Of a stretch of 64,000 nt of DNA, positions 32,128 through 32,457 are shown piece by piece. This stretch comes from Candidatus Woesearchaeota archaeon. Its GTDB lineage: Archaea > Nanobdellota > Nanobdellia > Woesearchaeales > UBA9989. Each line of letters starts with the position of its first letter. Within the stretch, counting starts at the first letter, position 1. Position numbers and translations under genes: made by a program. Location of the stretch: NCBI GenBank assembly GCA_013329045.1, contig DUKZ01000002.1, positions 30,662 to 94,661 of the forward strand, in the 5' to 3' direction. The notes beneath the pieces were generated by a model that saw only the letters and a program-made list of their open reading frames with translations, searched no databases and was not told where the DNA came from.

Positions 32128-32457
32128 ATGGCAGTAAAGAAAACATCAAGGGCAAAAAAAATTGGTAAAGTTGTTATTGGCGCAGCAGTGATTGGCGCAT
32201 TGGCGTATGGCGCAGCAAAAGGAATAAAGAGATTAAAATCAAAATATCCGGGAAAATCTTTGAAGGCGGCAGCAAAGGCTGAAGTGAAAGTGGTGAAGGG
32301 AAAAGTGAAGTCCGCAGCAAAGAGAGTCGCTGCAAAAGTCATAAAAGCAGAGAAATCTTTGGTTGCAAAAGCAAAAAAGAGAGCGGGCAAGAAAACTTCT
32401 GTTAAGGCAAAGAGAGTGACGAAGAAAAAGGCAGGAAAACGAAAATCGAGGAAGTAG
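32128..32457 (+). CDS. Lys/Ala-rich highly basic low-complexity protein (histone H1/Hc1-like), N-terminal hydrophobic segment
   Basis: 109 aa, about 30 percent Lys, AKKA/KAAAK repeats; GAGGTGA SD 9 nt upstream; antisense ORF is a low-complexity mirror. Confidence 0.5.
   Translation: MAVKKTSRAKKIGKVVIGAAVIGALAYGAAKGIKRLKSKYPGKSLKAAAKAEVKVVKGKVKSAAKRVAAKVIKAEKSLVAKAKKRAGKKTSVKAKRVTKKKAGKRKSRK

Follow-up and report, generated by a model that had tools for sequence, protein, structure and literature searches.

A lysine-rich protein of two predicted helices encoded between CDC48 and gatD in a Woesearchaeota archaeon: a possible membrane-associated or self-associating polycation

The gene between CDC48 and gatD

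The DNA analyzed here (the window) is a whole stretch of 64,000 nucleotides (64 kb) of a contig from a Candidatus Woesearchaeota archaeon (GCA_013329045.1, DUKZ01000002.1). In this window CDC48 ends with a stop codon at position 31887, which is followed by a T-run, and gatD starts with an ATG at 32492. The 604-nt gap between both genes, which is otherwise empty, is occupied by an ORF on the + strand (32128-32457; ATG start, TAG stop at 32455-32457) that encodes a Lys-rich protein of 109 aa (11.5 kDa, pI 11.8). The first-pass annotation had described here a 109-aa ORF with about 30% Lys, and the ORF is present exactly as described (33 Lys in 109 residues).

As read from the sequence, a TATA-like box (TTTTTATAT, 32075-32083, + strand) lies about 50 nt upstream of the ATG and may act as a promoter element, and transcription of the ORF would start near 32105-32110. 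TATA-like motifs were found 20-75 nt upstream of 15 of the 62 predicted genes in the window, against 2.5 expected. Closer to the start codon, and separated from it by a 6-nt spacer, there is an 8-nt match to a Shine-Dalgarno sequence (GAGGTGAT, 32114-32121, + strand), which is presumably complementary to the 3′ end of the archaeal 16S rRNA (the 16S gene itself lies outside the window). This octamer occurs three times in the window when both strands are counted (128 kb), and two of the three copies precede ORFs of 60 aa or more at the distance expected of a Shine-Dalgarno sequence.

The codon usage of the ORF was also that of a gene. Its codon log-likelihood was +0.48 per codon, to be compared with 0.27 ± 0.08 for the 57 long genes of the window and with -0.39 ± 0.25 (maximum 0.06) for the antisense frames of real genes, and in all public assemblies that contain this locus the ORF was picked up by gene callers. 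Five independent lines (the codon score, the Shine-Dalgarno sequence, the TATA-like box, the position in the gap, and a homolog, P0002, that aligns in the same frame) indicate that the Lys-rich ORF is very probably a genuine gene. A competing candidate had been pointed out in the first-pass annotation, i.e., the ORF on the opposite strand (32106-32573), which, if real, would have displaced the Lys-rich one. This ORF scored 0.065 per codon, below the minimum of the 57 trained genes, it overlaps gatD by 82 nt, it has been called as a gene in none of the public assemblies, and its richness in Phe mirrors the AAA/AAG Lys codons of the other strand. On the codon score, the overlap and the absence of gene calls it was rejected as a real gene; it is a shadow ORF.

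Parts of the protein, its relative and its distribution

The 109-aa product contains 30.3% Lys, 20.2% Ala and 11.9% Val and only two acidic residues, both Glu, so that its net charge is +38. Four stretches can be distinguished. A basic N-terminal tip (residues 1-14, MAVKKTSRAKKIGK; 32128-32169, + strand; net charge +6) is followed by an uncharged Gly/Ala/Val/Ile helix (residues 15-30, VVIGAAVIGALAYGAA; 32170-32217, + strand), a candidate for a short membrane or self-association helix, in which small residues are spaced as small-xxx-small (A20-A24-G28 and A19-G23). Then comes a conserved basic hinge (residues 31-44, KGIKRLKSKYPGKS; 32218-32259, + strand), with a helix break at YPGKS, and finally a Lys/Ala-rich helix (residues 45-109; 32260-32454, + strand; net charge +26, 35% Lys, 22% Ala, no Pro) that ends in the polybasic stretch KKTSVKAKRVTKKKAGKRKSRK. 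The hydrophobic N-terminus that had been proposed from the sequence is therefore real in that a hydrophobic segment is N-proximal, but it is not at the extreme N-terminus, because residues 15-30 come after the basic 14-residue tip.

AlphaFold2, run on the single sequence, placed one helix at residues 8-39 and another at 45-108, separated by a break at YPGKS (mean pLDDT 81, pTM 0.33), and on account of the low pTM the protein is predicted to have no tertiary fold but only these two helices. Along residues 45-86 there is a thin Val/Ala/Leu stripe, and the hydrophobic moment peaks at 95 degrees, a value that was reached by 1% of shuffles. The KAAAK/AKKA repeats that had been reported for this protein were not recovered: there is a single KAAAK and no AKKA, Tandem Repeats Finder returned nothing in the Lys-rich part, and the direct repeats of the ORF DNA are short and imperfect (17-23 nt only). 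A regular repeat protein was discarded on the basis of both repeat searches, and the Lys-rich tail is a low-complexity sequence, not a repeat array.

In an exhaustive phmmer search of 1.84 billion representative proteins, one true relative was detected, the 235-aa protein P0002 (E = 6e-5). Its gene lies at positions 61-768 of a 1.7-kb contig (L008, ENA ERZ23505103; 35-47% GC), adjoins a cold-shock-domain gene, and comes from a 35%-GC genome with its own GAGGT and TATA-like (A/T-rich) upstream signals. P0002 aligns in the frame of the Lys-rich ORF with 32 identical residues out of 65, 12 of which are encoded by different codons. Residues ~1-60 are common to both proteins, i.e., the basic tip (longer in P0002), the Gly/Ala-rich helix (VVGAAIGAAMLGAAAAYTAV in P0002), the motif KG-x-KRLK-x-KYPGK in the hinge (KGAKRLKRKYPGKK in P0002), which is the best-conserved stretch, and the start of the second helix (KAA-x-K-x-E-x-K-x-V-x-x-KVK), so that only the first ~17 residues of the Lys/Ala-rich helix are shared. 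Because P0002 matches residues ~1-60 only, the conserved unit is the N-terminal module, and the Lys-rich tail is lineage-specific.

Beyond the module, P0002 carries an unrelated domain of ~160 aa, itself an orphan, for which no homologs, no Pfam match and no PDB match were found. AlphaFold2 predicted for it, with a pLDDT of 40, the secondary-structure order alpha-beta-beta-beta-alpha-beta, and a 'PD...AVK' motif is present; it may faintly recall PD-(D/E)xK nucleases, which we take as a lead only. With no homolog, Pfam or PDB match and a pLDDT of 40, this domain gives no functional clue.

A word-indexed search of 5.8 billion proteins, made both with the single sequence and with a profile of the N-terminal module, returned P0001 alone (75 aa). 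This match was rejected as an artefact, because its source contig (L001, ENA ERZ4902888 NODE_70643; 1075 nt, 2x coverage) is the same as the window through codon 39 and is unrelated beyond that point; the contig is probably a chimeric assembly and the match misleading. No further relative came up when the protein database, the JGI metagenomes and IMG/VR were searched with a profile of the shared region, and neither a homolog nor a Lys-rich analogue was observed beside gatD in 80 gatD loci from other archaea. The search for homologs in archaea, which the first-pass annotation had proposed as a check, leaves P0002 as the single true relative.

Among six public copies, the DNA of the ORF does not differ at all and that of the whole locus is 99.9-100% identical, and because of this identity dN/dS is not computable and gives no measure of selection. 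The window is 100% identical to contig JAGVYQ010000002.1 of GCA_018303165.1 (L002), and the locus recurs in Rifle-type groundwater assemblies. In a one-genome-per-species set of GTDB, the nearest GatD proteins, from Woesearchaeota/Nanoarchaeota MAGs, were only 61-55% identical, so that this DPANN archaeon has no close sequenced sister species. The closest relative (L009, JACQSQ010000091.1) keeps the order CDC48-X-gatD, where X is a different small hydrophobic ORF (5118-5582), so that the slot is variable and turns over between lineages. By these searches the Lys-rich gene is a species-restricted orphan, confined to a single groundwater population plus one distant relative.

Likeness to known proteins and possible roles

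The first-pass annotation had classed the protein as H1/Hc1-like. At E ≤ 10, Pfam hmmscan returned no family for it, and hence no Linker_histone (PF00538), Hc1, Hc2 or TatA (PF02416); no PDB sequence matched at E ≤ 0.1; and scans against NCBIfam, PHROGs and PADLOC gave nothing significant (best PHROGs match, E = 0.06). Two matches were set aside, one to the NCBIfam model Phr_nterm (E = 0.014, 16 bits), which is below the cut-off, and one to the PADLOC model Cas5a (E = 5e-4, 18 bits), which is spread over the low-complexity region and was judged compositional. BLASTP against the Hc1 and HBHA tails gave E values of ~1e-7 without composition correction; with it, they were 66 for Hc1, at least 17 for HBHA and 5-9 for TatA. 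As nothing of this similarity is left once composition is corrected for, the protein resembles H1, Hc1 and HBHA in composition only. The Lys/Ala-rich, basic composition seen in the first reading therefore stands, but the homology does not, and the protein should not be annotated as H1- or Hc1-like.

The same annotation had set the protein apart from archaeal histones, Alba and MC1, and this was borne out: none of the corresponding Pfam families matched, and no match at E ≤ 1 was obtained when archaeal histone, Alba, MC1, Cren7, Sul7d, HU and Hc1 references were compared by phmmer with the 761 ORFs of the window. The latter search also covered the proposed check for histone-fold genes elsewhere: neither a histone nor Alba is encoded within the 64-kb window, a result of little bearing on the genome as a whole. 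Woesearchaeota as a phylum encode histones and Alba (PMC6136690).

In composition, the protein resembles the C-terminal domain of H1, chlamydial Hc1, the mycobacterial HupB/Hlp tail and Pseudomonas AlgP, all of which share ~30-40% Lys, ~20% Ala, low complexity and a very high pI, and by analogy polyanion binding by charge would be expected of all of them, the Lys-rich protein included. It differs from the H1/Hc1 type in that it has no winged-helix globular domain (two long helices are predicted by AlphaFold2), in that its tail contains no Pro, no SPKK, TPKK, AKKA or PAKKA and no tandem repeats, and in its N-proximal hydrophobic helix, which H1-like proteins are not known to have. The small size, the short (~16-aa) N-proximal hydrophobic helix, the basic hinge with Gly and Pro, the amphipathic Lys-rich helix and the charged tail recall TatA/TatE (PF02416), but the hinge (YGAAKGIKRLKSKYPG) lacks the invariant Phe-Gly (F-G-x-K-K-L), the tip is +6 whereas that of TatA is short and nearly uncharged, and the tail is purely basic. 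Eukaryotic RRBP1/p180 and Escherichia coli YqjD/ElaB/YgaM combine a hydrophobic anchor with a highly charged helical region and hold ribosomes or RNA at the membrane. They would share with the Lys-rich protein this plan of a single anchor and a charged helical region, but they are not known to be related to it in sequence; moreover, proteins of the YqjD type are anchored C-terminally, and p180 is very large and carries decapeptide repeats.

The closest architectural match, and a resemblance of architecture only, is HBHA (Mycobacterium tuberculosis Rv0475), in which an N-proximal hydrophobic segment (18 aa in HBHA, 16 aa here) is likewise followed by a helical region and a Lys/Ala-rich C-terminus. 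The Lys/Ala(/Pro)-rich C-terminal domain of HBHA is necessary and sufficient for sequence-independent DNA binding, and it binds sulfated glycans (PMC10665949). HBHA is longer (199 aa), and it has an acidic/neutral coiled coil and a Pro-containing tail with five AKKA repeats, whereas the protein studied here is basic throughout, belongs to an archaeal host, contains neither Pro in the tail nor AKKA, and has no sequence homology to HBHA. The architecture is a variant not known before within the known class of Lys/Ala-rich prokaryotic polycations. A holin, a type I toxin or a defence protein was ruled out by the lack of a PHROGs or PADLOC match and of a mobile-element context; the ORF is flanked by housekeeping genes (CDC48, gatD-gatE), and no relative was found in IMG/VR.

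The candidate for a membrane segment is helix 15-30. Its mean Kyte-Doolittle value is 2.1 over the 16 residues, and the maximum of the protein in a 19-residue window is 1.78, whereas the clear membrane proteins of the 64-kb window have maxima of 2.2-3.3, most soluble ones do not exceed 1.5, and three soluble-looking ones attain 1.9-2.0. The summed insertion value on a Hessa-type scale is about +0.9 kcal/mol for this helix and +2.2 for its P0002 counterpart. By the positive-inside rule, basic segments stay in the cytoplasm, and positive charges that follow a hydrophobic segment block export. Both flanks of the helix carry about +6, and hence neither transmembrane orientation is favoured. The likely signal peptides in the window (e.g., at 5526 and 59040) are far more hydrophobic and Leu/Phe-rich, unlike this helix, and a class III (pilin-type) signal peptide was ruled out, as there is no [KR]-[GA] cleavage motif. 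The small residues at i/i+4 recur in both homologs, which suggests helix-helix packing and is compatible with a short membrane helix and with a soluble oligomerization helix alike. A helix that is short (16 aa), marginally hydrophobic and basic on both sides may or may not insert into the membrane, and the membrane-tethered polycation that the first-pass annotation had offered as its alternative is a possible reading.

The reading that we prefer, to which we would give a probability of roughly one in three, is that the protein is a cytoplasm-facing polycation that may be membrane-associated or self-associating and would bind nucleic acid or other polyanions non-specifically. In this scheme, an independently promoted, species-restricted gene would encode a small, all-helical polycation of two parts. 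Residues 1-60 would hold it at the membrane on the cytoplasmic side, either inserted as a short anchor or flat in the membrane plane, and/or would mediate self-association by small-xxx-small helix packing; the lineage-specific residues 45-109 would bind polyanions by charge, without specificity, as the tails of H1, Hc1, HupB and HBHA do. The ligand would most likely be nucleic acid, or alternatively anionic lipid head groups, and the C-terminal portion, with a charge of +32, would be kept in the cytoplasm according to the positive-inside rule. The gene signals, the in-frame alignment of P0002, the two-part build, the two predicted helices, the net charge of +38, the small residues at i/i+4 in both homologs, the Kyte-Doolittle maximum, above that of most soluble proteins of the window, and the HBHA-like order of parts were counted in its favour. 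It is weakened by the shortness and marginal hydrophobicity of the helix, which falls below the clear membrane proteins, by the basic character of both flanks, and by the DNA identity of all public copies, which yields no measure of selection. The nearest relatives, moreover, do not have the gene in this slot, so that it could be a young, dispensable orphan.

These same features of the helix would suit a soluble nucleoid-associated or RNA/ribosome-associated basic protein, a functional analogue of H1/Hc1 whose Gly/Ala-rich helix would serve for di- or oligomerization only, with no membrane contact: residues 15-30 are short and marginally hydrophobic, and with strongly basic segments on either side of them any transmembrane topology is disfavoured. 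The extreme basicity, the Lys/Ala-rich helix and the uncorrected similarity to the Hc1 and HBHA tails point in the same direction. However, no homology to any known chromatin protein was detected (Pfam, PDB, phmmer, BLASTP), the conserved part is not the Lys-rich tail, and an uncharged helix of 16-20 residues, kept in both homologs, would be unusual in a soluble nucleoid protein. In addition, a species-restricted gene is unlikely to encode a major chromatin component, and the phylum is already equipped with histones and Alba (PMC6136690), so that we regard this proposal as tentative and on the unlikely side. Another proposal is that the polycation is exported or anchored at the surface. Residues 1-30 would then serve as a signal anchor or as a Sec signal peptide, which could be cleaved after AYGAA, and the Lys-rich part, exposed outside the cell, would bind polyanions of a host surface, like the HBHA adhesin, or DNA in the surroundings, like a ComEA-type DNA catcher. 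Export should be blocked, however, by the charges that follow the hydrophobic segment (six positive ones within nine residues, +32 in all), and the helix is neither as hydrophobic nor as rich in Leu/Phe as the likely signal peptides of this organism and has no class III cleavage motif. Such a protein would be attractive for a DPANN cell that lives as an episymbiont and scavenges nucleotides, with HBHA there is a precedent for a Lys/Ala-rich adhesin at the surface, an n-, h- and c-region layout with small residues at -3/-1 (G-A-A|K) can be read from the sequence, and the sub-threshold Phr_nterm match is to a signal-peptide model. The same module in P0002 precedes the globular domain that faintly recalls PD-(D/E)xK nucleases (a lead only, pLDDT 40), but this nuclease idea finds no Pfam, PDB or homolog support, and altogether export seems very unlikely.

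It could also be that the frame has no selected function, either as a young or spurious ORF in a variable intergenic slot or because the opposite-strand ORF is the real gene. The confinement to one population and one distant relative, the different small ORF that occupies the slot in L009, the ease with which A-rich low-complexity DNA stays open, and the identity of all copies, by which purifying selection is not demonstrable, all speak for this. Against it stand the strong Shine-Dalgarno and TATA signals together with the gene-like codon score, the existence of P0002, which in a 35%-GC organism keeps KRLKxKYPGK in the same frame behind its own GAGGT/TATA-like signals, and the properties of the antisense ORF (0.065 per codon, Phe-rich, 82-nt gatD overlap, never called), and we hold it to be distinctly unlikely. 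An outside chance is left to a further proposal, that the N-terminal module is a new, portable device of DPANN-type archaea for membrane anchoring or targeting that presents DNA-directed payloads at the cell envelope, which would be a Lys-rich tail that catches DNA or polyanions here and possibly a nuclease-like domain in P0002, or, as a variant, that the protein is a Lys-rich tRNA-binding helper co-transcribed with gatD-gatE. If true, a portable device would bear on DNA or nucleotide scavenging, or on host attachment, in an episymbiont that is unable to make its own nucleotides.

Should the polycation of our preferred reading be expressed and bind nucleic acid at the membrane, it would count as a first archaeal counterpart to the Lys/Ala-rich H1-like polycations of bacteria (Hc1, HBHA, the HupB tail) and, under the same condition, would illustrate how lineage-specific small proteins are invented by DPANN archaea whose genomes are reduced. 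For the time being it is one orphan small gene among many in genomes of this kind, and with a single groundwater population its general significance is limited.

Other features near the locus

An 85-nt structured element of Y shape was observed at 31920-32004, between the CDC48 stop codon and the promoter of the Lys-rich ORF. It is GC-rich (58% vs ~44%), has a minimum free energy of -48.5 kcal/mol (z = -5.2 on either strand), and shows a C(UUCG)G tetraloop on the + strand and a TTTTTT directly after it on the - strand. No Rfam match at E ≤ 10 was obtained, the element is single-copy in the window, and a covariance model run on 47 DPANN loci found no relative; it is a candidate for an orphan ncRNA or a bidirectional terminator. 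On the other side of the ORF, a second TATA-like motif (TTTATTAA, 32463-32470) has its centre ~26 nt before the gatD ATG, and no Shine-Dalgarno sequence lies between the two. This suggests that gatD has a promoter of its own immediately downstream of the Lys-rich ORF and that its mRNA may be leaderless. As there is no oligo-T terminator 3′ of this ORF, read-through into gatD would also be possible.

CDC48 itself is in pieces in one of the public assemblies (L003, GCA_013330465.1 DUIE01000033.1; window positions 29327-31488), with small gaps at the two AAA-domain repeats, probably by misassembly of an internally repeated gene. Of the genes called around the locus (window positions ~22000-42500), about half have no Pfam match, including one for a 907-aa protein (22679-25402, - strand), and in the same neighbourhood there are a VKOR gene and two probable toxin-antitoxin pairs (NTP_transf_2/HEPN at ~25726-26888, and a MazE-like protein with a 124-aa partner at ~35604-36170). 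Two tRNA genes on the - strand are long, namely tRNA-Arg(CCT) at 42775-42864 (90 nt) and a tRNA at 51485-51587, which was missed by ARAGORN but matched in Rfam with 103 nt for a 71-nt model, suggesting that it contains an intron.
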